Positions 12,112-32,947 of a stretch of 64,000 nucleotides of DNA are shown one piece after another. Position 1 is the first letter of the stretch. Every line of letters starts with the position of its first letter. Made by a program: the position numbers and the translations under genes. This stretch comes from Escherichia coli (GTDB taxonomy: Bacteria > Pseudomonadota > Gammaproteobacteria > Enterobacterales > Enterobacteriaceae): assembly GCF_013315695.1 (NCBI RefSeq), contig NZ_CP054353.1; one strand, given 5' to 3'. The notes beneath the pieces are model-generated. The model saw only the letters and a program-made list of their open reading frames with translations, did not search any database and was not told the DNA's origin.

Positions 12112-13155
12112 ATGAGCGAGAACTCGATTCGTTTGACCCAATACAGCCACGGCGCTGGTTGCGGCTGTAAAATTTCCCCAAAAGTGTTGGAAACCATCCT
12201 GCACAGTGAGCAGGCGAAGTTTGTTGATCCGAATTTGCTTGTGGGTAATGAAACCCGCGACGATGCGGCGGTATACGATCTGGGCAATGGCACCAGCGTT
12301 ATCAGTACCACCGACTTCTTTATGCCGATCGTTGATAATCCTTTCGATTTTGGCCGCATTGCGGCGACTAACGCCATCAGCGATATCTTCGCAATGGGCG
12401 GCAAACCGATTATGGCGATTGCGATCCTCGGCTGGCCGATTAACAAACTTTCCCCGGAAATTGCCCGCGAAGTGACCGAAGGTGGACGCTATGCATGCCG
12501 TCAGGCGGGTATTGCGCTGGCTGGCGGTCACTCCATCGATGCGCCGGAGCCGATTTTTGGTCTGGCGGTAACGGGGATCGTACCGACCGAGCGGGTGAAG
12601 AAAAACAGTACCGCACAAGCCGGATGCAAACTGTTCCTGACGAAACCGCTGGGGATTGGCGTTCTTACCACGGCTGAGAAAAAATCACTGCTTAAACCAG
12701 AACATCAGGGACTGGCGACGGAAGTGATGTGCCGGATGAACATCGCAGGCGCGTCCTTTGCCAACATCGAAGGCGTAAAAGCGATGACCGACGTTACGGG
12801 TTTTGGTTTGCTGGGGCATTTAAGCGAAATGTGTCAGGGCGCAGGTGTGCAGGCGCGCGTCGACTATGACGCGATCCCGAAATTGCCTGGGGTTGAAGAG
12901 TACATTAAGTTGGGCGCAGTGCCTGGCGGCACCGAACGTAACTTTGCCAGCTACGGTCATCTGATGGGTGAAATGCCGCGTGAAGTGCGCGATCTGCTGT
13001 GCGATCCGCAAACTTCTGGCGGTTTGCTGCTGGCGGTCATGCCGGAAGCAGAAAATGAGGTCAAAGCTACAGCCGCCGAGTTTGGCATTGAACTGACGGC
13101 GATTGGCGAACTGGTGCCAGCGCGCGGCGGTCGTGCCATGGTTGAGATCCGTTAA
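12112..13155 (+). CDS. selD: selenide, water dikinase (selenophosphate synthetase)
   Basis: 347-aa ORF beginning [23 protein letters not shown] with the catalytic Cys17 motif. Confidence 0.95.
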
Positions 13156-15191: not shown

Positions 15192-16535
15192 TTAAATCAC
15201 GCCCTGGCTTAACATCGCATCCGCAACCTTCACAAAACCGGCAATGTTCGCGCCCTGCACGTAGTTGGTTTGATCACCTTCACCACCATGCTCAACACAG
15301 GCATGGTGGATATCCAGCATGATGTGATGCAAACGTGCGTCAACTTTCTCGGCTTTCCAGCCCAGGCGCGCAGCGTTTTGCGCCATTTCCAGGCCCGATG
15401 TTGCTACACCGCCAGCATTAGCCGCTTTACCCGGTGCAAACAGTACGCCTGCCTGCTGGAACAGTTCAGTCGCTTCGATGGTGGTCGGCATATTTGCCCC
15501 TTCGGCGACGGCTTTAACGCCATTGGCGATAAGCTGATGCGCGGCGTCAACATCCAGTTCGTTCTGGGTGGCGCAAGGCAGGGCGATATCAACCGGTACA
15601 GACCACGGCTGTTGGCCTTCGAGATAGACCAGACCAAATTCTTTGGCGTAATCTGCCACTCGACCATCGCGGCTGGCTTTGATTTCGATAAGACGTGCCA
15701 GTTTCTCTTTCGTGAATCCGCTTTCATCAACTACAGTGCCACTGGAGTCTGACGCAGTGATCACTCGAGCACCAAATTCCATCGCTTTTTCGATAGCGTA
15801 CTGGGCGACGTTGCCGGAGCCAGAAACGGAAACGCGCATTCCTTCAAAACCCATACCGTGGCGTTTTAGCATTGCTTCTGTGAAATAAACCAGACCGTAT
15901 CCGGTAGCTTCCGGGCGAATAAGACTGCCGCCAAATGAAAGGCCCTTACCGGTGAAGACGCAGGCGGTATTGTTGGAGAGCTTTTTCATCATCCCCGCCA
16001 TAAAGCCGACTTCACGACCACCAACCCCGATATCACCTGCCGGAACGTCAGTATCCGCGCCCAGGTGGCGATACAGTTCAGTCATCAGCGCCTGGCAAAA
16101 ACGCATCACTTCACCTTCGCTTTTTCCTTTCGGATCGAAATCGCTGCCGCCTTTACCACCGCCCATCGGCAGAGTAGTCAGGGCATTTTTGAAGGTTTGT
16201 TCGAAGCCGAGGAATTTGAGAATGGAAAGGTTAACTGACGGATGGAAGCGCATACCGCCTTTGTACGGGCCGATGGCAGAGCTGAACTGCACACGCCATG
16301 CACGGTTGACCTGTACCTGGTTGCGATCATCAACCCATACCACGCGAAACTGGATCACGCGCTCCGGTTCAACCAGACGCTCCAGTAATGACATCTGGCG
16401 ATATTTTGGATTTTGTTCAAGAAAAGGCCAGAGTGTGGTCATTACTTCACGAACGGCTTGCGCGAACTCGGTTTGATTCGGGTCGCGCTTTTGGACATGG
16501 TTGAGGAATGACTCCAGAGAATATGTCTGATCCAT
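15192..16535 (-). CDS. gdhA: NADP-specific glutamate dehydrogenase
   Basis: 447-aa ORF with Glu/Leu/Phe/Val dehydrogenase motif (GGGKGG) and Rossmann fold. Confidence 0.95.
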   Translation of the reverse strand: MDQTYSLESFLNHVQKRDPNQTEFAQAVREVMTTLWPFLEQNPKYRQMSLLERLVEPERVIQFRVVWVDDRNQVQVNRAWRVQFSSAIGPYKGGMRFHPSVNLSILKFLGFEQTFKNALTTLPMGGGKGGSDFDPKGKSEGEVMRFCQALMTELYRHLGADTDVPAGDIGVGGREVGFMAGMMKKLSNNTACVFTGKGLSFGGSLIRPEATGYGLVYFTEAMLKRHGMGFEGMRVSVSGSGNVAQYAIEKAMEFGARVITASDSSGTVVDESGFTKEKLARLIEIKASRDGRVADYAKEFGLVYLEGQQPWSVPVDIALPCATQNELDVDAAHQLIANGVKAVAEGANMPTTIEATELFQQAGVLFAPGKAANAGGVATSGLEMAQNAARLGWKAEKVDARLHHIMLDIHHACVEHGGEGDQTNYVQGANIAGFVKVADAMLSQGVI

Positions 16536-16770
16536 AGATATAAAACCCTTATATATTAATACGATTGTGCTTATGTTGTTTATGTCATGTGCTTTTGCAG
16601 TTTTCGACTATACCATCAAGAATGTGACGGTAAGCAAGAAAAAAATGACCCAGGAAAGCAAATTAATAACGAGAGTAATCTCATAACCAAATGCGATAAC
16701 TCAGACGCTAAAGTTATGCCGCCCGGCTACCGTTATTAGTAGCAGAGACAATAACGTTAAGGAGTTCCCT

Positions 16771-17043
16771 GTGAGTCGAGCATTGTTCGCCGTAGTATTA
16801 GCATTTCCATTAATTGCACTGGCTAACCCGCATTATCATCCGGACGTGGAGGTAAACGTACCGCCAGAAGTGTTCAGTTCAGGCGGGCAGTCAGCGCAGC
16901 CTTGTACTCAGTGCTGCGTTTATCAGGATAAAAATTATTCTGAAGGAGCGGTAATTAAAGCCGAGGGAATACTGCTGCAATGCCAGCGTGATGACAAAAC
17001 CCTTAGCACTAATCCGCTGGTCTGGCGGCGCGTAAAGCCATAA
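16771..17043 (+). CDS. ynjH: small secreted protein of unknown function (DUF1496 family)
   Basis: 90-aa ORF, apparent GTG start, N-terminal signal peptide; position next to gdhA matches E. coli ynjH. Confidence 0.75.
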   Translation: MSRALFAVVLAFPLIALANPHYHPDVEVNVPPEVFSSGGQSAQPCTQCCVYQDKNYSEGAVIKAEGILLQCQRDDKTLSTNPLVWRRVKP

Positions 17044-17416
17044 ACGCCTCTAATAGTGGAATGTCAGCAGGGGCCAGCGGATATTGCAGCGCCTCTTCAG
17101 GTGAGCACCAGACCAGCGCCTGATGTTCATGTGCCTGTAACGTCCCGTGGAAGTCGGGTACGTGCCAGGCATGAAGATGGATAATCCGCCCCGAAACTTC
17201 TCGCTGATGGCTGGCAACATATTCACCCACAGCTGCTTCGATGCCCAGTTCTTCGCGTAACTCACGCACCAGCGCCTGCCGCTGGCTTTCATCCGGCTCG
17301 ACTTTACCACCGGCAAACTCCCATAATCCCGCCTGATCGCTATGGGTGGGGCGTTGCGCGAGTAAAATTTTGCCATCACGTTCGATGATGGCGGCAACAA
17401 CTTCAATCATTTTCAT
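17009..17416 (-). CDS. nudG: Nudix hydrolase (CTP/dCTP pyrophosphohydrolase)
   Basis: 135-aa ORF with Nudix box (GGKVEPDESQRQALVRELREELGI). Confidence 0.9.
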   Translation of the reverse strand: MKMIEVVAAIIERDGKILLAQRPTHSDQAGLWEFAGGKVEPDESQRQALVRELREELGIEAAVGEYVASHQREVSGRIIHLHAWHVPDFHGTLQAHEHQALVWCSPEEALQYPLAPADIPLLEAFMALRAARPAD

Positions 17417-17502
17417 AAATTACACACGGGCAGATAAGCGAAAAATGCCATAATATCCGCACTGTTGCTCAATCAGAAAGGCTTTATATTTAAGGAGTGC
17501 CT

Positions 17503-18123
17503 GTGCTAGACCGCCATCTTCATCCCCGGATTAAACCGTTGTTGCATCAGTGCGTGCGGGTTCTTGATAAACCGGGCATTACGCCAGATGGTTTAACATT
17601 AGTGGGATTTGCCATCGGCGTGCTGGCACTGCCTTTTCTGGCGCTGGGCTGGTATCTGGCGGCGCTAGTCGCCATTTTGTTGAACAGGCTGCTTGATGGT
17701 CTGGATGGCGCACTGGCGCGGCGCAGAGGGCTTACCGACGCGGGCGGCTTTCTCGATATTTCTCTCGATTTTCTCTTTTACGCGCTGGTGCCGTTTGGTT
17801 TTATTCTTGCTGCACCGGAGCAAAATGCGCTGGCAGGCGGCTGGCTGCTGTTTGCGTTTATCGGCACGGGCAGCAGTTTTCTCGCTTTTGCTGCGCTGGC
17901 GGCGAAACATCAGATTGATAATCCTGGTTATGCGCATAAATCGTTTTATTATCTGGGCGGGTTAACCGAAGGCAGCGAGACGATTTTGCTGTTTGTTCTG
18001 AGTTGCCTCTTTCCGGCCTGTTTTCCGTGGTTTGCGTGGGTATTTGGTGCGTTGTGCTGGATGACGACCTTTACGCGGGTGTGGAGTGGGTATCTGACGC
18101 TGAAGTCGCTCCAGCGTCAGTAA
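17503..18123 (+). CDS. ynjF: CDP-alcohol phosphatidyltransferase-family membrane protein
   Basis: ORF 17497..18123 trimmed to a GTG start with a TAAGGAG Shine-Dalgarno 6 nt upstream; D-G-x-x-A-R...G motif region (DGLDGALARRRG). Confidence 0.8.
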   Translation: MLDRHLHPRIKPLLHQCVRVLDKPGITPDGLTLVGFAIGVLALPFLALGWYLAALVAILLNRLLDGLDGALARRRGLTDAGGFLDISLDFLFYALVPFGFILAAPEQNALAGGWLLFAFIGTGSSFLAFAALAAKHQIDNPGYAHKSFYYLGGLTEGSETILLFVLSCLFPACFPWFAWVFGALCWMTTFTRVWSGYLTLKSLQRQ

Positions 18124-18131
18124 TTGCAATG

Positions 18132-19439
18132 TTATTTGCTGCTGTCCGGGCCGCGTTCACCGGTTGCTACCGGATTTTTTGGATCGCTGCTCCATTCGTA
18201 CCAGCCGCCGTCGTAAACGGAGACGTTATTCCAGCCCATTGCGCGTGCGTACATAAAGGTTTCGGACGCGCGCCAGCCGGTGCCGCAGTAGAATGAAACT
18301 TGCTGATCTGGTCTGATATTCCATGCTTTCCACATAGCCGTAATATCATCGGCGCTGCGCATGGTGCCATCCGGGTTATGGAAATCTTCCATATGCGTCG
18401 AGTCGCTACCAGCGTGTCCCCAACGTGCTCCGGCTATTTCACCTTTTGGTTTAATATAGCTGTAACCACTGGTCGTACCGATAAACTCCGGCCACGAACG
18501 AATACTCACCAGCGAGGCGTCCTGGCGATGCAGCAGTCCACGCGCCTGTTCCATATTCAGCATCAGTTGCGGTTGCGCCGGGATCTTCACGCCGAAATCC
18601 GGTTCCGCTTTCACTTTCGGTGGCGTTCCGCGCTCAACAGGCAGTCCCGCGTCGGACCAGGTTTGCCAGCCGCCATCCATCAGGCGCACATCTTTCACGC
18701 CAGCGTAGAGCATAATCTGCGCCACACGCGCTGCAGCGTATACGTCACGCCCGTACAGAATGACCGTGGTGTCATGGCGAATGCCGTGTTTTGCCAGCAT
18801 CGCTTTTAGTTGTTCATCAGAAACTTTGTTCCACAGCGGTTCGCTTTCAACTTCGTTGGTGTCGATGTAGTCAGCGCCGGGAATATGGCTGATAAGGTAA
18901 AGCTTAGGAGCGCCCCAGGCCGCTTCAATGACTTTCCAGTCACCGGCAGGTTTCGCCGTAACCTCTTTACCTTGTTGCAGGTCATGCAGCCATTGCGGAT
19001 AAACCAGCTGCTCAAAGTGCGGCAGTTTTTGCAGACGGGAAGGTTCGCTTAGCGCGTCACTCAGGATGGAGATATGCGTAAAACCTGCTTTTTGCAGACG
19101 CGTTTTGACGGCATCGACATCTTTGTCATTTCCGTACAGCGCCACCGGAGCATCGGTTTTCAGGTTATGTTGCTTGATCCACGCGTTGAGCTGTTCGGTG
19201 CTCATTTTGTCGAGCCAGCTGGCAGAGAGGTTTAAGGCGGCAGGTTCATGACCAGAAGGGCCATTTAAGGTTTGTGGCCAGCCGTTATAAAACGCGCTGG
19301 GGCGAGTATCTATCGCTTTGCCATTTTGTTGCTGAAGCTGGTCAAGTGTAAGAGGCTTCGCCAGTTCAGCGGCCCACGAAGAAGCGCAAGCCAGCCCTAA
19401 AGCCATTGCCAGCGCGGTCATTTGAGAAACACGTTTCAT
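18132..19439 (-). CDS. ynjE: periplasmic three-domain rhodanese (thiosulfate sulfurtransferase)
   Basis: ORF trimmed to MKRVSQMTALA (435 aa) with signal peptide; rhodanese active-site CGTGWR loop. Confidence 0.88.
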   Translation of the reverse strand: MKRVSQMTALAMALGLACASSWAAELAKPLTLDQLQQQNGKAIDTRPSAFYNGWPQTLNGPSGHEPAALNLSASWLDKMSTEQLNAWIKQHNLKTDAPVALYGNDKDVDAVKTRLQKAGFTHISILSDALSEPSRLQKLPHFEQLVYPQWLHDLQQGKEVTAKPAGDWKVIEAAWGAPKLYLISHIPGADYIDTNEVESEPLWNKVSDEQLKAMLAKHGIRHDTTVILYGRDVYAAARVAQIMLYAGVKDVRLMDGGWQTWSDAGLPVERGTPPKVKAEPDFGVKIPAQPQLMLNMEQARGLLHRQDASLVSIRSWPEFIGTTSGYSYIKPKGEIAGARWGHAGSDSTHMEDFHNPDGTMRSADDITAMWKAWNIRPDQQVSFYCGTGWRASETFMYARAMGWNNVSVYDGGWYEWSSDPKNPVATGERGPDSSK

Positions 19440-19505
19440 CGAAAATCCCGACATTGTAGTTTTGAGTGCGCCATTCTGAACTGACGCATTGAGAAAAACT
19501 TTGCG

Positions 19506-20159
19506 TTATCGCAGTTTGTTGTAATTTTCTGACCACTGCGCCATATCCAGAACAGAACTATCAGCAGGAACATCCTGGAGATCGTGCGTTACCTGAACGA
19601 CGGGGATCGCCAGGGCGCGAACTTCGCTGAACACCCACTGGCGAAAATTATCGCGCAGAGCCACATCAAGACGGCTGAATGGCTCATCCAGTAGCAACGC
19701 TTTTGGCTGAGCGAGAAGGGCGCGTAGCAGAGCAACGCGCGCTCGCTGACCGCCAGACAAAGTGGCAGGATCCTGATGGAAAGCTCCGTCAAGGCCTGAA
19801 CGCTCAAGTGCATCATTCACGGCATTACGTCGGGCATTCCCCTTAAGTGTCGCCGGTAGCGCCAGCAGTAAATTTTGCCCGACGCTGAACTGATCAAATA
19901 ACAGTGCATCCTGGAAAAGAATGCCAATCTGACGCTGTGCGGTGGGTAGCATGTCAATCCGTTGCTCATTAAGCCATAGCTCCCCTGTACAAGAAAACTG
20001 TCCGGCCAGCGCACCAATCATCCATGAAAACAGAGTGGATTTTCCACAGCCAGACGGCCCCATTAACGTGACAATGTCACCTTTATCCACCGTAAAGTTA
20101 ACGTTTGTCAGCAAGCGGCTTTCTGGTAAACGTAGCGAAACATCTTTCACGCAGAGCAT
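19506..20159 (-). CDS. ynjD: ABC transporter ATP-binding protein
   Basis: ORF trimmed to MLCVKDVSLRL (217 aa); Walker A GPSGCGKST, ABC signature LSGGQRARV, Walker B LLLDEP; start overlaps the ynjC stop (TAATG). Confidence 0.85.
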   Translation of the reverse strand: MLCVKDVSLRLPESRLLTNVNFTVDKGDIVTLMGPSGCGKSTLFSWMIGALAGQFSCTGELWLNEQRIDMLPTAQRQIGILFQDALLFDQFSVGQNLLLALPATLKGNARRNAVNDALERSGLDGAFHQDPATLSGGQRARVALLRALLAQPKALLLDEPFSRLDVALRDNFRQWVFSEVRALAIPVVQVTHDLQDVPADSSVLDMAQWSENYNKLR

Positions 20160-21691
20160 TAGCGGAGTCCTTGTCTGACATAACCTACCCATTTTGCGAC
20201 TAACGCGGTCAGGGCAAAAATAATAAGCGGTAATAGCAGTTGCCATAAAGCCTGGGCGGCAAGAATACCGTTGCTGCCGCCGCTGCTTAATGCCACCGCC
20301 TCAGTGGTGAGCGTCGGAAAACGCCCCGCGCCCAGCCACAGCGTCGGCATATACTGCGCAATACTGACTGAAAATCCCACCGCGAAGGCAATCAGCGTAG
20401 GGTGTAGCATAAGCGGACATTTCACGTAAAAGAAGATTTTGGACCGCGACCAGCCCAGTGTTTGCGCAATCAAAATTAACCGTGAATCAATGCGCTGCCA
20501 GGCGGGTTGCAGGATAAACAGCATCCACGGCATTACCCACAGCAGATGCCCCCAGACCACCGCTGTCCAGCTTCCATCCAGGTTTAGCCATAGCGCCAGC
20601 GTGTACTGGCCCGCCACCAGTGGCAGAGCAGGTAATAAAATGGGCAACCATAGCCACAACTGGCGACGCTGTGGCCCCCATTCCAGCCACAGCAGTAACA
20701 GGAGCAAAGCGATGAATGTCGCCACCAGCCCCATTGTCAGGCTGTTGATGAGCGCTTCACTATTGATCGTCGACTGATCCGCGAGGATCGCCAGCAGAAC
20801 CACACACAGCACACCGGTTAAGGGTAAAAAACTCGCCAGCGTAATGCCTGGCAATAAAGGCGTGGCAGGCTTACGAACGCCATCTACGCGGGGAATAGTA
20901 CGCCGCCAGTTACGCCATAGCAGATAGCCCAGCAAAACGTAGGCGGCGAGTAACAGCAGCAGCAGGCTGGCGAGTGCGCCTTTCATCTGTTGTTCGGCGT
21001 CGCCCTGGGTTAACCACTGCCAGCTAATTACCGCCAGCGTCGGGGGATTACCTGGCCCAAGAATAATCGCCACATCCACGACCGACAGCGACCAGGCAAC
21101 AATCGCCAGCATCGCCATTGCCAGCGCAGGCGCGATAGAGGGCAACAGCAGCCAGTTCAGGCATTGCCAGCGGCTGTAGCCCAGCGAATCCAGCACAATG
21201 ACCTGCTGCAATAGCCGTTTTTCGCTCAATACTGCCGCTAAGATCCACAGCAGAAATGCGCTTTCTTTCACCGCCAGGGTGAGGCCCAGCCCAATACCAA
21301 ATTTGTCCATTGGCGGAGTGAAATACGGGAAATAGTCATAAAGCAGCCCTCCGTCAGCAAACAGCAACAGGGCGCTGGTGGCAAAAGCAACATGGGGAAT
21401 GGCGAGCAGCCACGGCAGACGGGCGCACATATGCTGCCATTTCGGTCCAGGCCACAGCGCCACAATCACCAGCAGGGCAATCAACAACGCCCCGACCGCC
21501 GCAATGGTTGTCGACACCAGCGTCGCCAGTAATGCCTGCGGTAACTGTGGATCGGCAAATAACGCCTGCCAGTGCGTCAACGACAAAGCAGGCGATATCA
21601 GCGTGAGAGCTGCCGGGATCAGCGGTGCATAAATCACCGCTATCATCGCCCACAGCAAAAAGATTAATGCGTACCGTAACGGTGTAGCCAT
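20159..21691 (-). CDS. ynjC: ABC transporter permease (two fused permease domains)
   Basis: Long hydrophobic ORF 20159..21715; start codon uncertain (ATG at 21691 chosen). Confidence 0.8.
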   Translation of the reverse strand: MATPLRYALIFLLWAMIAVIYAPLIPAALTLISPALSLTHWQALFADPQLPQALLATLVSTTIAAVGALLIALLVIVALWPGPKWQHMCARLPWLLAIPHVAFATSALLLFADGGLLYDYFPYFTPPMDKFGIGLGLTLAVKESAFLLWILAAVLSEKRLLQQVIVLDSLGYSRWQCLNWLLLPSIAPALAMAMLAIVAWSLSVVDVAIILGPGNPPTLAVISWQWLTQGDAEQQMKGALASLLLLLLAAYVLLGYLLWRNWRRTIPRVDGVRKPATPLLPGITLASFLPLTGVLCVVLLAILADQSTINSEALINSLTMGLVATFIALLLLLLWLEWGPQRRQLWLWLPILLPALPLVAGQYTLALWLNLDGSWTAVVWGHLLWVMPWMLFILQPAWQRIDSRLILIAQTLGWSRSKIFFYVKCPLMLHPTLIAFAVGFSVSIAQYMPTLWLGAGRFPTLTTEAVALSSGGSNGILAAQALWQLLLPLIIFALTALVAKWVGYVRQGLR

Positions 21692-22830
21692 TCTTGTTCC
21701 AGCGCATTTACCCAACCTGCGTGCGGTTCAGCCAGTACCGGCGGCAGATCCTGCGGCATTCTTGATTGCAAGGATTCGCGCTGCCCGTCAGGCAGTTTTT
21801 GCGGATCGAGAACAGAAGGATCGCCCCAGACAGCGGGATCTGCTTTACGCAGTTGCGCATTGGGTGAGAGCAGGAAATTGGCAACTACCTTCGCCGCAGC
21901 ACTGGTATTCGCGTTGGCAGGAATGGTGACGAAATGGACGTTGCCAATCATCCCCTCGCGAAAGCCAAAACTGTAACTGCTTGCAGGCAAATCGCCGCTG
22001 GCGATTTTTTGCTGCGCATGCGCGGGGTTAAAGGTCAGCGACAGGCGCAATGTGCCGGCTTTCAGCAGAGCATCCATCCGCGCGGGCGAAGGCGGGAAAT
22101 CCTTTCCTTCGCGCCACAAATACGGATGCAGTGCATCAAGATATTGCCACAAGGGCGCAGTGACACGGGCGAAAGTTGCATCGTCCGGCGCTTCTTTTAA
22201 TTCGGCGGGATCGGGCGTCAGCATAATCAGCAACTGTTCAAGAAACGCCGTGCCGGTAAAGTCCGGTGGGCGCGGATAGGTAACCGTGCCGGGATTGGCT
22301 TTAGCAAACTCCAGTAAAGCTTGCGGCGTTTGTGGTGGCTGCGGCGTAACATCGCGGCGGGCGATAAACGTCAGTTGCGCGCCCCCCCAGGGCGATTCAG
22401 CCCCTTCTGTAGGCACTGAAAAATCTTCCCGCACCGGCAGCTGTGTGTCGACATAGCGCCAGTTGGGCAGAGTCTCCGCCCAGCCAGTTTGTAATAAATT
22501 GGCCTCTTTTAAGGTGCGGAAGTTTTCGCCGTTCACCCAGAGCAGATCCACCGAGCCGCCCGTTTTACGTCCGGCAGCAGCTTCGGTCTGAATGCGCTTT
22601 ACCGCGTCTGCGGCATCCGCCAGACGAACAATCTTCAGGTTTATAGTGTAATAGGTTTTCATCTCGCCGCTAACCCAGTCGAGATAGCGGTTAATTGCGG
22701 TATCGCCGCCCCAGGCGTTAAACCAGACGGTTTGTCCTTTGGCCTCATTTTTTATTTCCTGCCAGTCACTGGCATGTGTTGCCAAAGAAAACAGCGATAA
22801 CAATCCCAGCAACCACCCACAATGGCGCAT
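21664..22830 (-). CDS. ynjB: ABC transporter periplasmic substrate-binding protein
   Basis: 388-aa ORF with N-terminal signal peptide; upstream of the permease and ATPase genes. Confidence 0.85.
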   Translation of the reverse strand: MRHCGWLLGLLSLFSLATHASDWQEIKNEAKGQTVWFNAWGGDTAINRYLDWVSGEMKTYYTINLKIVRLADAADAVKRIQTEAAAGRKTGGSVDLLWVNGENFRTLKEANLLQTGWAETLPNWRYVDTQLPVREDFSVPTEGAESPWGGAQLTFIARRDVTPQPPQTPQALLEFAKANPGTVTYPRPPDFTGTAFLEQLLIMLTPDPAELKEAPDDATFARVTAPLWQYLDALHPYLWREGKDFPPSPARMDALLKAGTLRLSLTFNPAHAQQKIASGDLPASSYSFGFREGMIGNVHFVTIPANANTSAAAKVVANFLLSPNAQLRKADPAVWGDPSVLDPQKLPDGQRESLQSRMPQDLPPVLAEPHAGWVNALEQEWLHRYGTH

Positions 22831-22839
22831 CATCTCTCC

Positions 22840-23388
22840 TTAAGAACGTTTTTCAGGAATACGGCACAGCCCCTGAGCGGGAATGTCCATGGCAGAATTA
22901 AAACGGGCTGACAGATTTTGCAGGCCGATCAATGCCGTCAGTTCGGTGAGTGCCTGAGCGTCAAAGTGAGTAGCCAGTCGGGTACGCAGGGCATCATCGA
23001 CCGTTGGCGGTGTGACGCTTGCGGCTTCGGCGTACTCCAGCGCCAGCCGTTCTTCATCGCTAAAGAGCGGGCTTTGCCGCCAGTCAGCCACTGCCAGCAG
23101 TTTATCGGTGCTGCCGGTACGCTCGGCGACTTTCATACTGGTGATATCCACGCAAAACTCACACAGGCACATTTGCGCAATGCGCGCGCTGACAAGCGAT
23201 CGCACTACCGGATCGAGCGGTGAGCGTTTGCGCTCCAGCCAGCCGACAAACATCGACACCAGATAAAAGATAAACGGGATCCGCCCCCACCAGCGAATGG
23301 GGCTTAGCACCTCGCCGTAATGGCGACGATGCAGCCACGCCTGCGGACGTAAAATGAAAGGAATTTTGCTAAGCGGCGGTAAACCCAT
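22840..23388 (-). CDS. ynjA: AhpD/carboxymuconolactone-decarboxylase-like protein
   Basis: 182-aa ORF; sequence and position match E. coli YnjA. Confidence 0.85.
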   Translation of the reverse strand: MGLPPLSKIPFILRPQAWLHRRHYGEVLSPIRWWGRIPFIFYLVSMFVGWLERKRSPLDPVVRSLVSARIAQMCLCEFCVDITSMKVAERTGSTDKLLAVADWRQSPLFSDEERLALEYAEAASVTPPTVDDALRTRLATHFDAQALTELTALIGLQNLSARFNSAMDIPAQGLCRIPEKRS

Positions 23389-24095
23389 CAGGCATTCCTC
23401 TTCTGGCGCTCAAGCCATATTTTCTTCGCCATAAAAATCACCACGGTCAGGGCAAACAGAATAAACAGTCCGGTGACAAACCAGAAAGTACCGCCTGTTA
23501 ACATGCTGCCCGCCCAGGAATAAACAATAGTCGCCGGTAACTGACCAAGCCCGGTGGCGATAAAAAACGAGCGAAAACGTATTGAAGTCAAACCGGCAGC
23601 ATAGCTGATTGGATCGAAAGGGACAAAAGGCAATAACCGACATACCAGGATGGTGTGTTTGCCGTAGCGAGTGAAAAAGCCGTCCATACTGTCAAGTACG
23701 GTTTTGCCGGTTAATTTTTCCACCACTTCGCGGCCCATCACTCTGGCGATAAAAAAGCATAGTGCCGCGCCGGCCATCGAACTGGTCCACGACAGTAAGC
23801 CGCCCCAGAACGCACCAAACAGCGACGCATTGGCAAAGGTGATCAAAAACGCAGGTAGCGGTGCAGCAATGGCCTGTAAAATCATCAACAAGAACGAGAC
23901 AACTGCCGCTAGTGCGCCGTAAGACTGAATAAAGCGTTCTATACCCTGTTGGTCCACGGCGGCAAACGCCGCAACGCTGCGATTGATAAACTCATGGACG
24001 CCGGGAAGCAGCGCCCATGCCAGCAGCACAGCGAACAACAGGATGATGAGGGTTATACGGTAGTACCAGATTTTACGCGATTGCATCTTCATCAT
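23388..24095 (-). CDS. ydjZ: DedA-family inner-membrane protein
   Basis: 235-aa hydrophobic ORF with DedA/TVP38 features. Confidence 0.85.
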   Translation of the reverse strand: MMKMQSRKIWYYRITLIILLFAVLLAWALLPGVHEFINRSVAAFAAVDQQGIERFIQSYGALAAVVSFLLMILQAIAAPLPAFLITFANASLFGAFWGGLLSWTSSMAGAALCFFIARVMGREVVEKLTGKTVLDSMDGFFTRYGKHTILVCRLLPFVPFDPISYAAGLTSIRFRSFFIATGLGQLPATIVYSWAGSMLTGGTFWFVTGLFILFALTVVIFMAKKIWLERQKRNA

Positions 24096-24108
24096 CCGTT
24101 ATCCTGCT

Positions 24109-24786
24109 TTATTCGGTGATTTTAAAGGTAACCGTTGCCAGCGTGTTATCCGCCGGGAGAACTGAGGCATTGCCTTTGAATTTCACTTCGCCGCGTTTTT
24201 CCACCGCACCATAAGTGTATGTTGCATTGCTGACGATGCCGACCGGGCAGCTATCCAGACACACCAGGCAACCCGTTTTCTTCTCTTCTGCTGCCGTTAA
24301 ATTACCGCCAAAGCGCATGTCCAGTTTCTTGCCATTACTGTCAACAATCACTTCATCGAAGGAATACGCTTTTGCCGCCCCTTGCCAGTTGACCGAAATA
24401 TCCAGTTTGCTGCCTGTGACATGAGTCGTTTCTTTATTATCCATCGTCATGTTCTCGCCCGGCGTACCACCTGCCTCTTTCAGGGCTTCATAAAATGCTT
24501 TCGGGGTCGCATAACCCATAAACAGCGATTTATGTCCGTTGGAGCCATCTTTAAACACAATACCGTGACGAGTGTCGTCGGTGAGGAAACGACCATTAAT
24601 TTGCACCAGCATGGTTACCGTATGGTTATTGGCATCGACACGCAGCGGTTGGCTGTTCGAAAGTCCGTCGTATTCCACTTTTGCCGCCGCATTCTCTTTT
24701 TGATCGCAGCCGCTAAGCCCAGCAACAGCCAGTAAGCAGAGTGCAGTCAGTCCTTTTTTCCATGACGCTGAATAATGTTGCAACAT
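24109..24786 (-). CDS. ydjY: lipoprotein of unknown function
   Basis: ORF 24109..24948 trimmed to MLQHYSASWKKGLTALCLLAVAGLSGC (lipobox LSGC); 225 aa. Confidence 0.7.
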   Translation of the reverse strand: MLQHYSASWKKGLTALCLLAVAGLSGCDQKENAAAKVEYDGLSNSQPLRVDANNHTVTMLVQINGRFLTDDTRHGIVFKDGSNGHKSLFMGYATPKAFYEALKEAGGTPGENMTMDNKETTHVTGSKLDISVNWQGAAKAYSFDEVIVDSNGKKLDMRFGGNLTAAEEKKTGCLVCLDSCPVGIVSNATYTYGAVEKRGEVKFKGNASVLPADNTLATVTFKITE

Positions 24787-24790
24787 CGTT

Positions 24791-25501
24791 CTATCCTTCA
24801 TTTTTTGGGTGAGTAAGTGGGCTGCGGCGAGAAGCAGACAGATCCACATGTTTGTGTCGAGCGTAGAGTTTTGCGAGCTGGACGAGAATAAACAGCGCCA
24901 GGCCCGCCAGACAGAGTTGTAAAATGAAGCGCAGCGTAATGCCTTCATTGGCGAGATCGCTTGCCATCACGGTATAAATAACAATACCGGGCAGAGTCGT
25001 GAGTGCTGAAATAAGGGTATAAGGCCAGAAGGCGATTGTGGTTAATCCGTAAGCGTAATTTTGAATATTGTAAGGAAACAACGGGATTAAGCGGGTCAGA
25101 ATAAGAAAATCAATACCGTTACGCGCAATGCCTTTTTCAATGGCCTTAAAAGTATGGCTATGGCCCACATATTTCAGCAGTAAATCACGCCCCAGCCAGC
25201 GCGCCAGCAGGAATGAGCACGAGGAGGCCAGCGTGGCGGCAATTAATGAGAGTAGTGTCCCTAAGAACGGGCCAAAAACTATTCCTCCAGCGATCACCAG
25301 TATGCTTCCTGGTAACAGAAAGAGGGTGGCAATGATGAATAACAGAATATAGAGGCTATAGCCGAACAATCCGCTCTGGCGAATGAGTGTCTGTAAGTGG
25401 GGTAAATCGGTGAGCAGATCGAATAAACCGAAAGCGTGGATAGCGTAAATGAGCAGCGCAAAAATAAGACAGGCAAAAAGAAATTTACGCTCAGCGTTCA
25501 T
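24791..25501 (-). CDS. ydjX: DedA/TVP38-family inner-membrane protein
   Basis: ORF trimmed to MNAERKFLFACLIF (236 aa); multi-helix membrane protein. Confidence 0.85.
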   Translation of the reverse strand: MNAERKFLFACLIFALLIYAIHAFGLFDLLTDLPHLQTLIRQSGLFGYSLYILLFIIATLFLLPGSILVIAGGIVFGPFLGTLLSLIAATLASSCSFLLARWLGRDLLLKYVGHSHTFKAIEKGIARNGIDFLILTRLIPLFPYNIQNYAYGLTTIAFWPYTLISALTTLPGIVIYTVMASDLANEGITLRFILQLCLAGLALFILVQLAKLYARHKHVDLSASRRSPLTHPKNEG

Positions 25502-25667
25502 CGTGGAGTTTCCTATATCAAACTTGATAATAGAGAAGTGGTCAGACAACTAAAAACGCAGTGACGGTATAACAAAGGGCGGCAGGCAACAAATCATTAC
25601 TGACAGTTTGTTGATTTTTCTCAAGGTTAATTCTCCTGACCCAGTTTGAGCCAGGAGAACAGCTAAA

Positions 25668-26474
25668 TTAGCGGCGGAAGGTCGCCCAGACGGGGGCGTG
25701 ATCGGACGGTTTTTCCATGCTGCGGATTTCATAGTCGATGCCAGTTTCTACGCAACATTCTGCCAGCGGTTGGCTGGCGAGAAGCAGGTCGATACGCAGA
25801 CCGCGGTTATCGTCAAAACCTTTTGAGCGGTAATCAAACCATGAGAAACGATCGGCTGTTTGCGGATTCGCATGGCGGAAGGTATCGACCAACCCCCAGC
25901 TCATCAGTCTCTCCATCCATTCGCGTTCTTCCGGAAGGAAAGAGCATTTACCAGTCCGCAGCCAGCGTTTGCGGTTCTCTTCGCCAATGCCGATATCCAG
26001 GTCGGTGGGGCTGATATTCATATCGCCCATAATCAGCACCGGATTTTCGCGCTTAAGTTCGGTTTCGAGATAGTTTTGCAGATTCTGATAAAACTGCGCC
26101 TTCGCAGGGAATTTTATCGGATGGTCGCGGCTTTCACCCTGCGGGAAGTAACCGTTGATCACGGTGACATTGCCCAGCGGTGAGGGGATTTCCGCCATAA
26201 TAATCCGCCGTTGCGCCTCTTCGTCATCACCCGGAAAACCGCGACGCACGGCAATCGGTGTCTCTTTGGTCAGCAGCGCCACGCCATAATGGCCTTTCTG
26301 CCCGTGATAAAACACGTTGTAGCCGAGCTTCGCCACCTCTTCGAGTGGAAACATATCGTCATGAACTTTTGTCTCCTGCAGGCCAATCACATCCGGCTGG
26401 TGCTTTTCGACGATGGCTTCAAGCTGGTGAGGTCTGGCGCGCAGGCCGTTGATATTAAAAGAGACAAATTTCAT
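25668..26474 (-). CDS. xthA: exodeoxyribonuclease III (AP endonuclease)
   Basis: ORF trimmed to [21 protein letters not shown] (268 aa); ExoIII/APE1 family. Confidence 0.95.
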
Positions 26475-26831
26475 AGTCGCTGCCATTTATTCAGATAAAG
26501 AGTGCGTGGATGGTAGCAGAATTTCGCTTTGCTTACCGCCTGTTGTTAAGTGATTTGATCGATGGTTGTTAATGATGTCAACGATGGCGCAAAAAATGCC
26601 CGCTTTTGGTGCGCGCTGCGTCAGAATGGCGCAGTAATTTCCAGTAAATTTCGTCAATGATCACAATTCCAGAATTATATTTTACTTCTGCATAACATTG
26701 CGTTTTTTATTCTTTTTATTCACCCACATCGCAAACGTATTCACTTTATATGCACTTTAAATGCATATGGTTTGGTTATAACTCCTTGATTTCCAGTTAG
26801 CCTCCGCCGTTTATGCACTTTTATCACTGGC

Positions 26832-26847
26832 TGGCACGAACCCTGCA
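26832..26847 (+). promoter_or_regulatory. sigma54-type promoter element (TGGCAC-N5-CTGCA) upstream of astC
   Basis: GG and GC dinucleotides spaced exactly as in the -24/-12 consensus, about 70 nt upstream of the astC ATG; the ast operon is known to be nitrogen-regulated. Confidence 0.6.
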
Positions 26848-26883
26848 ATCTACATTTACAGCGAAAACATTACTTATTATTAA

Positions 26884-32947
<6,064 letters not shown>

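Follow-up and report, generated by a model that had tools for sequence, protein, structure and literature searches.

We studied eight genes, ydjX-ydjY-ydjZ-ynjA-ynjB-ynjC-ynjD-ynjE, which occupy positions 18132-25501 on the minus strand of a 64,000-nucleotide stretch of the Escherichia coli chromosome (hereafter, the window), together with ynjF, which converges on them. Our preferred reading, put forward tentatively as possible rather than probable, is that they make up a core-genome, FNR-activated anaerobic envelope locus that is a mosaic of two modules: an ATP-binding cassette (ABC) importer that would work with a phosphotransferase in salvage, and a thiol-based relay that would handle sulfur, selenium or arsenic. 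Because ynjF and disulfide reductases occur as partners of these genes in other bacteria, membrane-lipid and thiol/disulfide chemistry appears to suit the locus better than simple nutrient uptake. The gene combination does not match any described system.

Organization and conservation of the locus

The coordinates come from the RefSeq annotation of an identical record, moved to window coordinates, and translation of the eight genes revealed no internal stops. A 7.6-kb query was 100% identical to NZ_OZ547117.1 and matched in 5424 of the 5426 complete E. coli genomes, with coverage of at least 80% in 5312 of them and with 95-99% identity in nearly all those matched. In transcription order, the junctions measure 4 nt (ydjX-ydjY), 13, -1, 9 (ynjA-ynjB), -28 (a 28-nt overlap of ynjB and ynjC), -1 (a 1-nt overlap of ynjC and ynjD, in TAATG) and 66 nt (the gap between ynjD and ynjE). 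These values bear out the tight packing of eight minus-strand genes described in the original prediction for this DNA, which had also correctly named the stop/start overlaps of ynjC/ynjD and ynjB/ynjC; its family labels (DedA, AhpD-like, ABC importer, three-domain rhodanese) hold on homology and domain evidence. The K-12 block is slightly longer (7374 nt versus 7370 nt here), with 511 instead of 510 codons in ynjC and a ydjY-ydjZ spacer of 14 instead of 13 nt. The G+C content of ydjX, ydjY and ydjZ (47-51%; 23388-25501) is lower than that of ynjA to ynjE (52-57%), which is compatible with separate histories of the two modules.

A YnjB profile built from 12 sequences and applied to one genome per species yielded 80 ynjB loci, which we compared with their 10-kb flanks by tblastn and by clustering of open reading frames (ORFs). 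Of these, 62 are non-enteric and come from Comamonadaceae, Vibrio, Rhizobiales, a Desulfobacterota genome and others. Citrobacter, Kluyvera, Pseudocitrobacter and Pluralibacter possess ydjX-ydjZ-ynjBCD-ynjE without ydjY, and carry an ynjA-like gene on the opposite strand, upstream of ynjF; Enterobacter, Lelliottia, Cedecea and Shimwellia have only one gene of the VTT family, to which ydjX and ydjZ belong. The rhodanese gene ynjE follows the importer genes throughout the Enterobacteriaceae, and ynjE, ydjY and ynjA are absent from the 62 ynjB loci outside this family. Only in Escherichia did we find all eight genes together. The single co-directional block of the original prediction is thus co-directional as claimed, but it is not one unit, being split into two transcription units in E. 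coli and assembled in full only in that genus, and it omitted ynjF, the most conserved partner of ynjBCD. We also considered anti-phage defence, which was ruled out as no specific PADLOC model matched any of the nine proteins: YnjD showed only generic ABC-ATPase similarity and the other eight had no match.

The importer and its phosphotransferase partner

Judged from their sequences, YnjB, YnjC and YnjD make up a complete binding-protein-dependent (type I) ABC importer, with a substrate-binding protein (SBP), a permease and an ATPase. The periplasmic SBP is encoded by ynjB (21664-22830, minus strand); its N-terminus, MRHCGWLLGLLSLFSLATHA/SD, is signal-peptide-like, and it scored 558.8 bits against the NCBIfam subfamily PRK11622 (cut-off 203). 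The product of ynjC (20159-21691, minus strand) is a fused double permease with ~12 hydrophobic segments and weak matches to the PhnU2, CysT and ModB permease models; its homologues carry the Pfam domain BPD_transp_1 and, in a Firmicute homologue, the permease is split into two BPD_transp_1 genes. YnjD (19506-20159, minus strand), an ABC ATPase of 217 amino acids without a C-terminal regulatory domain, contains Walker A (GPSGCGKS, at residue 34), LSGGQ (at 134) and LLLDEP (at 155) motifs.

None of the named NCBIfam transporter models gave YnjD a score above its cut-off, and YnjBCD fell short of the curated thresholds for the Thi, Cys, Phn, Pot and Mod families. A thiamine importer of the ThiBPQ type was discarded, with 131.5 bits for YnjD on the ThiQ model TIGR01277 (cut-off 245) and no ThiB match for YnjB, some of whose homologues are labelled 'putative thiamine transport system' by JGI. 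So was a sulfate/thiosulfate CysPUWA system, with 108 bits for YnjD on CysA (cut-off 502), 24 for YnjC on CysT (cut-off 415) and no CysP/Sbp match for YnjB. The ThiBPQ, PhnSTUV and PotABCD importers resemble YnjBCD in architecture and fold class (a fused or double permease and a cluster-D binding protein), and the best NCBIfam matches of YnjD and YnjC, all of them below cut-off, were PhnT2, PhnU2 and ThiQ; YnjB, however, stands apart in a subfamily of its own. No sequence relatives of YnjB were found in the PDB. Its predicted model (pLDDT 95) has a two-lobe SBP fold, with a Foldseek probability of 1.00 to many SBPs, and its fold neighbours include PhnS, PotD, FbpA/FutA, AfuA and TbpA (the latter in 29th place, at 15% identity); sulfate- and thiosulfate-binding proteins (CysP/Sbp) were absent from the top 50. 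With identities of just 12-18% across binders of very different ligands, we rejected the assignment of a ligand to YnjB from its fold neighbours.

Outside the Enterobacteriaceae, ynjB-ynjC-ynjD-ynjF is a co-directional operon. Of the 46 such loci with sequence downstream of ynjD, 34 contain ynjF, and the probability of such a linkage by chance is negligible. The reverse search, starting from YnjF, recovered the ynjBCD-ynjF operon in Rhodoferax and in Vibrio cholerae, where ynjBCDF stands alone. In the window, ynjF (17503-18123, plus strand) is convergent with ynjE. Its product has the attributes of a CDP-alcohol phosphotransferase: the domain PF01066 (Pfam, E 1.5e-10), the hydrophobic segments of a polytopic membrane protein and the complete motif D68-G-x2-A-R-x7-G81-x3-D85-x3-D89, which is invariant in 11 family members. 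It could not be equated with any of the named CDP-alcohol transferases (PgsA, PssA, Pcs, PIP/AIP synthase, DIPPS), since it fell below every cut-off, the best scores being 60.8 bits on archaetidylinositol-phosphate synthase (cut-off 180) and 40.4 on PIP synthase (cut-off 170). YnjF is also remote from solved structures (E ~1e-3), and its top family members, single-domain proteins of ~200-210 amino acids, provided no informative fusions.

Genes for an APH-fold kinase, for TIGR04282 (a CofC-like nucleotidyltransferase) and for TIGR04283 (GT2) flank ynjBCD(F) in five Comamonadaceae loci (L030, L040, L062, L079 and L082) and in a Firmicute locus, L088. In L062, L079 and L082, importer, APH/choline-kinase-fold kinase, nucleotidyltransferase and PF01066 phosphotransferase co-occur, as in the Kennedy/Lic and Pcs/ChoXWV pathways, so that, where both kinase and nucleotidyltransferase are present, the importer and YnjF would complete a Kennedy-like set. 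Nevertheless, the nucleotidyltransferase of these loci is CofC/DUF2064-like and not LicC/CCT-like, YnjF stays under the named cut-offs, and E. coli retains only the importer and the phosphotransferase of those classes. A point mutation in ynjC, P213S, alters colistin fitness (PMC9184624), which fits, circumstantially, an envelope-lipid role.

VTT proteins and their disulfide-reductase partners

The first gene of the operon, ydjX (24791-25501, minus strand), encodes a COG0398/TMEM41-like DedA (VTT) inner-membrane protein, and ydjZ (23388-24095, minus strand) a DedA/VTT protein of the type that accompanies YdjY; RefSeq names both TVP38/TMEM64 family protein. YdjX, with multiple hydrophobic segments, is 29-31% identical to proteins of other phyla with the Pfam domain VTT_dom (PF09335), and YdjZ is 52-57% identical to the product of the gene directly 3' of ydjY in Firmicutes and metagenome loci. 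Homology supports their membership of the DedA/VTT proteins of COG0398; the TMEM41/COG0398 placement itself is taken from the literature, where YdjZ is the exemplar of COG0398 and this TMEM41-like branch holds the closest bacterial relatives of the eukaryotic scramblases (PMC10127716). Members of COG0398 have been argued to lack the charged residues at the re-entrant-loop tip and not to flip undecaprenyl phosphate (PMC10127716), and YdjX and YdjZ fail to complement strain BC202 (PMC3836016). We likewise rejected the undecaprenyl-phosphate flippase UptA/COG0586, on which YdjZ scored 36.5 and YdjX 27.2 bits, compared with a cut-off of 250; matches to the DedA models were likewise weak and under threshold.

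In 19 of the 62 non-enteric loci, ynjB has a VTT gene at a distance of up to 10 kb. Assuming about eight DedA genes per E. coli-sized genome, we estimate this to be far above chance, with the caveat that the loci are not phylogenetically independent. In 13 of these, the VTT protein encoded near ynjBCD(F) carries a fused class-I FAD pyridine-nucleotide disulfide oxidoreductase (L040, at 15930-18098, and L025, L027, L028, L031, L045, L051, L062, L063, L067, L069, L079 and L082). These fusions, ~720 amino acids long where complete, keep the redox motif GDCLNYGCVPSK or a close variant intact and match Lpd-, MerA- and glutathione-reductase-like models best. Loci of the Desulfarculus type instead have VTT fused to an HdrD-like Fer4/CCG module; VTT is fused to or adjoins HdrD-like Fer4/CCG proteins in L003, L171, L160/161, L088, L075 and L176, and Fer4/CCG or GltD-like/dicluster proteins adjoin it in Vibrio mexicanus, Firmicute and metagenome loci. 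This Rosetta-stone evidence of fusion and adjacency suggests that VTT proteins work with cytoplasmic disulfide-reductase chemistry. In the E. coli locus, the AhpD-like protein YnjA would be the sole candidate for the reductase role beside the VTT proteins.

Two further neighbours deserve mention. A secreted DUF3047 protein (L051, 19765-20589; cluster c42) adjoins ynjBCDF and a VTT-reductase gene, and was seen in seven loci (L051, L025, L030, L045, L062, L063 and L067). In the V. mexicanus locus (L075, 3378-9778), the gene for a TtrS-like sensor kinase (366 bits, cut-off 750) is divergent from those for a rhodanese, a GltD-like/dicluster protein, VTT and ynjBCDF, which may indicate that the cluster responds to a sulfur oxyanion or a similar signal.

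YdjY, its VTT partner and YnjA

YdjY (24109-24786, minus strand), left undescribed in the original prediction, is a periplasmic lipoprotein with the lipobox LSGC followed by Asp at position +2, which, by the lipoprotein +2 rule, predicts its retention in the inner membrane. The cysteines of its C173-x2-C176-x3-C180 motif, as well as His74, are invariant in the alignment of homologues. We rejected its K-12 name, '4Fe-4S ferredoxin-type domain-containing protein', as YdjY is a lipoprotein and does not show the combination of ferredoxin fold and four-cysteine cluster motifs. Homologues with 50-57% identity exist in Firmicutes, Desulfobacterota and Campylobacterota. When metagenomes were scanned for YdjY, most of the contigs recovered were from E. 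coli, and ~13 loci were informative. In most of the diverse loci examined, a VTT gene, usually of the YdjZ type, stands directly after ydjY (before it in one), the exceptions being L002, L175 and L176, where a small membrane protein and not a VTT protein follows. Cys113 is kept in every YdjZ-type VTT protein examined and Cys152 in most; the VTT proteins linked to ynjBCDF lack both.

One neighbourhood of the YdjY-YdjZ pair is the Firmicute operon L088. It encodes a YnjE-like rhodanese lipoprotein (40% identity), a small membrane protein, a YdjX-like VTT protein, a Fer4/CCG protein, a fused TIGR04282+TIGR04283 protein, an APH/choline-kinase-like protein, an SBP of the PRK11622 subfamily (451 bits), two permeases, an ATPase and a nucleoside hydrolase, with YdjY and a YdjZ-like gene divergent to this rhodanese/SBP operon. 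Given that rhodanese, VTT, SBP, permeases, ATPase, YdjY and YdjZ-like protein are all present, almost the whole E. coli set has been re-assembled in a Gram-positive bacterium. The export signals are conserved as well: YnjE has a Sec signal, and both YdjY and the rhodanese of the Firmicute have lipoboxes.

Small hydrophobic proteins of ~125-155 amino acids, without a Pfam family, follow ydjY or precede the VTT gene in many non-enteric loci (L002, 8649-9029; L003, 8666-9130; L089, 10656-11051; L088, 1364-1798; L175, 8694-9107; L176, 8634-9065) and are absent from E. coli; those of different loci did not cross-match in tblastn at E 1e-6. The Firmicute YdjZ-like proteins have an extra N-terminal region of ~150 amino acids. 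In L089 (2433-11745), a Psr/Phs/Ttr-type molybdopterin oxidoreductase (catalytic, NrfD and 4Fe-4S subunits) and a two-component system are encoded beside YdjY, the small membrane protein and VTT.

The layout of these genes recalls MerP-MerT-MerA: a periplasmic protein with a Cys motif (YdjY), a small membrane protein (YdjZ) and, in the 13 related loci with fusions, a class-I FAD reductase, which reaches 367 bits on the MerA model, below the cut-off of 454. However, neither YdjY nor VTT is related to MerP or MerT in sequence or fold, and in E. coli the place of the flavoprotein is taken by an AhpD-like protein. We therefore regard the likeness as an analogy of layout and not as membership of the Mer family.

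YnjA (22840-23388, minus strand) is a soluble protein of the AhpD/carboxymuconolactone-decarboxylase fold, without hydrophobic segments and with the motif C74-L-C76-E-F-C79 (CLCEFC; CEFC at 76-79). Its PDB relatives are 2IJC and PA0269 (E 1e-9), Bmp8 and the AhpD structure 6K40. It scored below threshold on a 'YciW-related (seleno)protein' model (101 bits, cut-off 310); such 'seleno' labels among the weak E. coli matches mean only that some relatives are selenoproteins.

The rhodanese YnjE

The last gene, ynjE (18132-19439, minus strand), encodes an exported three-domain rhodanese of the EanB type, with structures in the PDB as 3IPO and 2WLR. Pfam identified the three rhodanese domains, which follow a Sec-type signal peptide, and Cys385, the sole cysteine of the mature protein, sits in the CGTGWR catalytic loop of the C-terminal domain. 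Residues 33-427 align end to end with 6KVW/6H98 (E 3.4e-88), and 6KTV is also among the closest solved relatives (~1e-88); we take these three entries to be EanB, the polysulfide-dependent (anaerobic) ergothioneine synthase. YnjE and EanB are homologous over their full length, have an identical active-site loop, FYCGTGWR, and share the conserved SGY-x-YIK region, but YnjE carries a signal peptide and is exported, in contrast to the cytoplasmic location expected of such a synthase. In addition, the annotation of the surrounding 25.6 kb lists no EanA-type histidine methyltransferase, and E. coli is not known as an ergothioneine producer. EanB-like enzymes that lack an assigned function may attach sulfur to heterocycles, as proposed in a study that cites the YnjE structure paper (PMC9516567). 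YnjE has been described as periplasmic, with no apparent thiosulfate:glutathione (GSH) activity and a poor performance with thiosulfate and 3-mercaptopyruvate (PMC10215317). Its product name in K-12, molybdopterin synthase sulfurtransferase, is also used by Myers 2013 (PMC3688515).

Selenium and arsenic genes in the neighbourhood of related loci

The original prediction had pointed to the proximity of selD as possibly relevant, at a distance of about 6 kb. In the window, selD (12112-13155, plus strand), which encodes selenophosphate synthetase and is context that is possibly related, ends 4977 nt from the ynjE stop, with topB, gdhA, ynjH, nudG and ynjF in between. The remark gains some weight from other lineages, in which SelD, TIGR03169 and YedF are neighbours of the families studied here; the five unrelated genes that intervene in E. 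coli detract from it. The 'N-terminal-to-SelD' oxidoreductase TIGR03169 (315 bits, cut-off 310), a family named after the N-terminal portion of certain SelD proteins, is encoded at most 10 kb from ynjB in 9 of the 62 non-enteric loci, these nine spanning Neisseriales, Rhizobiales and Burkholderiales. Of the 62, three (L056, L063 and L067, all from Burkholderiales) have selD itself adjoining ynjBCDF. The adjacency to selD thus occurs in a minority of loci, and its nominal P of ~0.004 ignores shared ancestry. In L176, an operon of YedF, cysteine desulfurase, DUF3343 and SelD lies 2.3 kb from the Fer4/CCG-YdjY genes. The genomic company of the E. coli locus and its relatives is therefore shared with the YedE/YedF-SelD system, although there is no homology to YedE or YedF and the neighbourhood link is confined to a minority of loci. 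Together with the distance of 5 kb in E. coli, these loci make the relation to selD worth testing.

Arsenic-related genes also occur in related loci. In the metagenome locus L163 (6488-10622), a single operon contains TIGR04283, TIGR04282, the radical SAM protein ArsS (437 bits, cut-off 300), YdjY and a YdjZ-like protein, and this is the most direct link of the YdjY/YdjZ pair to an 'arsenosugar' cassette. The Firmicute locus L174 has the flippase-like TIGR00374, C_GCAxxG_C_C, TIGR04283, TIGR04282 and VTT divergent to YdjY and a radical SAM gene. Overall, members of the ArsS/TIGR04282/TIGR04283 cassette, with scores above the curated cut-offs, stand beside YdjY/YdjZ homologues (L163, L174, L088) and YnjBCD homologues (L088 and the five Comamonadaceae loci). 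The E. coli locus differs in having none of the three genes, as tblastn with all three queries found no match in the window.

Transcription and control

The first seven genes, ydjX to ynjD, are packed as a single unit. A promoter-like site, TTCAGA-16 nt-TACAAT (19453-19480, minus strand), was the only one found on the minus strand of the region by a consensus scan and lies in the 66-nt ynjD-ynjE gap; no intrinsic terminator was found on the minus strand between the two genes. According to Myers 2013, FNR directly activates two distinct units, ydjXYZ-ynjABCD from a site at -60.5 and ynjE from one at -41.5 (PMC3688515). Upstream of ydjX we located an FNR-type site, TTGAGAAAAATCAA (25611-25624), with one mismatch to TTGAT-N4-ATCAA and its centre 116.5 nt upstream of the ydjX ATG; only five one-mismatch sites exist in the 64-kb window and this one is identical in K-12. 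The published ynjE site at -41.5 was not reproduced by simple consensus matching: the ynjD-ynjE gap, identical to that of K-12, contains no match to the FNR consensus with up to three mismatches. A perfect 12-nt inverted repeat, TGCGATAACGCA (19502-19513), spans the ynjD stop just upstream of the ynjE promoter-like site. It was scored as a weak plus-strand stem, does not fit the FNR consensus and may be a candidate operator for some regulator. Over-expression of BaeR mildly induces ynjABCD (Bury-Moné 2009). Control by a riboswitch or small RNA was ruled out: positions 17000-27000, compared with Rfam at E values of up to 1, yielded only a chance tmRNA-like match (20.5 bits, gathering score 47).

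An in-frame ATG lies five codons 5' of the annotated ynjE start (MSGFS-MKRV, 19440-19454) and overlaps the TACAAT -10-like hexamer, so that the mechanical ORF has 440 amino acids and the annotated protein 435. The stop codons of ynjF and ynjE are 8 nt apart and convergent (17503-18132), and the pair figures among the E. coli overlapping-transcript pairs of ExcludonFinder (PMC12288877); antisense interference between the two would be odd if both belong to the same putative system. The same list includes nudG and ynjH (PMC12288877), convergent genes on the minus and plus strands, respectively, that overlap by 35 nt at 17009-17043.

Possible functions of the locus

Our observations in E. coli and related loci concern gene content and junctions, conservation and neighbourhoods, and also fusions, motifs and export signals; from them we infer a chemistry, a direction of transport, the kind of element handled and the joint action of both modules on one molecule. 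In the first module (YnjB, YnjC, YnjD and YnjF), the ABC importer would bring in a polar compound, which YnjF would attach, either as such or as its phosphate, to an inner-membrane partner that is a lipid or is CDP-activated. It would thus be a head-group salvage of the Kennedy or Pcs type, a pathway that the APH-fold kinase and the CofC-like nucleotidyltransferase of Comamonadaceae would complete. The second module (YdjX, YdjY, YdjZ, YnjA and YnjE) would be a thiol-based relay at the inner membrane. YnjE, through Cys385, and YdjY, through its CxxCxxxC motif, would be its periplasmic members; YdjX and YdjZ would present the substrate at the membrane or move it across; and YnjA, with its CxCxxC motif, would act on it at the cytoplasmic face. 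The group handled by the relay would be a thiophilic one, namely sulfane sulfur, selenium or arsenic.

A more specific and very doubtful version ties the two modules to one lipid-linked intermediate and sees in the E. coli locus the enteric form of a widespread pathway not described before. An imported organo-chalcogen or metalloid head group, such as one of the 5-deoxy-5-(seleno/arseno/thio)-ribose or onium type, would be built into a phospholipid by YnjF and flipped by VTT, and its sulfur, selenium or arsenic centre would undergo thiolation or redox cycling, through YnjE and YdjY on the outer side and through a reductase or YnjA on the inner side. The result would be a thiol/chalcogen shuttle, or a bacterial arsenosugar- or selenosugar-phospholipid pathway. 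The locus could also be a specific route of selenium delivery to SelD under anaerobiosis.

Several points weigh against the two-module reading. We found nothing in the literature searched that links ynjBCD, ynjF or ydjXYZ to selenium, arsenic or lipids. The names 'arsenosugar biosynthesis glycosyltransferase', 'Nterm_to_SelD' and 'diclust_near_Sec' are assigned by genomic association, and ArsS alone among the arsenosugar cassette reportedly has experimental support, from Xue et al. 2019. Several matches of the E. coli proteins lie under curated cut-offs, and the modelled fold of YnjB names no ligand. As the E. coli locus has no kinase, nucleotidyltransferase or ArsS gene and no reductase fusion, it could do something simpler. 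As many of the loci come from few lineages (Comamonadaceae, Vibrio and two or three Firmicutes), the counts overstate the number of independent events. The modules need not be coupled, since V. cholerae has ynjBCDF alone. Moreover, ynjE has its own promoter and is credited in K-12 with a part in cytoplasmic molybdopterin synthesis, and COG0398 DedA proteins have been tied to aerobic metabolism (PMC10127716), at odds with the anaerobic operon found here.

The original prediction had proposed that YnjBCD imports a small sulfur or selenium compound that YnjE and YnjA process, for assimilation or detoxification, with the DedA proteins as accessories. We consider this unlikely, even though the periplasmic rhodanese follows the importer throughout the Enterobacteriaceae, anaerobic control by FNR falls together with the need for selenoprotein formate dehydrogenases, a 2022 review knows of no high-affinity selenium transporter (PMC9312934) and the title of Ledgham 2005, as cited by others, ties a DedA protein to selenite resistance. 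Its chalcogen or metalloid theme does recur in related loci, in the L088 rhodanese and in the TIGR03169, selD and YedF-SelD neighbours, but nothing points to thiosulfate, tetrathionate or selenite: YnjB, YnjC and YnjD fail the Cys and Thi models, no sulfate or thiosulfate binder is among the 50 closest folds, and YnjE is poor with thiosulfate and 3-mercaptopyruvate. Furthermore, across the 62 loci outside the enterics the importer goes with ynjF and never with ynjE, and simple uptake gives no role to the CDP-alcohol phosphotransferase, the kinase, the nucleotidyltransferase or the GT2 protein and leaves the reductase fusions unexplained.

Lipids alone might instead be the business of the locus, with YnjBCD and YnjF making a minor phospholipid from an imported head group, YdjX and YdjZ scrambling it, as TMEM41B/VMP1 do, YnjE, YdjY and YnjA as unrelated passengers, and neither a chalcogen nor a metalloid taking part. 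The wide distribution of ynjBCD-ynjF, which can stand alone as in V. cholerae, the kinship of COG0398 with the eukaryotic scramblases, the effect of the ynjC mutation on colistin fitness and the flippase-like TIGR00374 of L174 agree with this. We hold it to be quite unlikely, because the repeated fusion of VTT to disulfide-reductase modules, or its position next to them, is unexpected for plain scrambling, as are the invariant cysteines of YdjY, the rhodanese within the same operon in a Firmicute and in Vibrio, and the SelD, YedF and ArsS neighbours. It is also conceivable that there is no system at all: YnjE would be a molybdopterin sulfurtransferase, YnjBCD an unrelated nutrient importer (the 'putative thiamine transport' of KEGG-style annotation, which the JGI labels of some YnjB homologues echo) and the packing a result of genome history. 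The K-12 product name and Myers 2013, the separate promoter of ynjE and the restriction of the full set to Escherichia speak for it. Even so, it seems highly improbable to us. A cytoplasmic molybdenum cofactor role is hard to reconcile with the Sec signal of YnjE, its lipoprotein homologue in Firmicutes and the periplasmic location given in the literature; the same families are re-assembled in a Gram-positive operon; the ThiQ score is 131.5 bits against a cut-off of 245; and the stop/start overlaps, with FNR co-regulation of both units, argue for joint use.

Significance

The block itself is not new, as its genes are annotated and the structure of YnjE is known. In the literature searched, we did not find ynjF counted as a member, nor did we find the pairing of YdjY with YdjZ, fusions of VTT and reductase as ynjBCDF partners or the links to ArsS, SelD and YedF. 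Whichever function applies, three annotations call for correction: YdjY should not be called a ferredoxin, nor YnjBCD a thiamine or thiosulfate system, and ynjF has to be counted in the set. The nine genes, un- or partly explained in the best-studied bacterium, are found in virtually every E. coli genome. For the COG0398 DedA proteins, kin of human TMEM41B and VMP1, the reductase fusions and the YdjY partner offer a testable handle on their role. If a new lipid were involved, it would add a class to the phospholipids of E. coli and might help to explain the effect of ynjC on colistin fitness. If a selenium or organo-arsenic route proved true, it would be relevant to the way in which gut microbes handle dietary selenium and arsenic.

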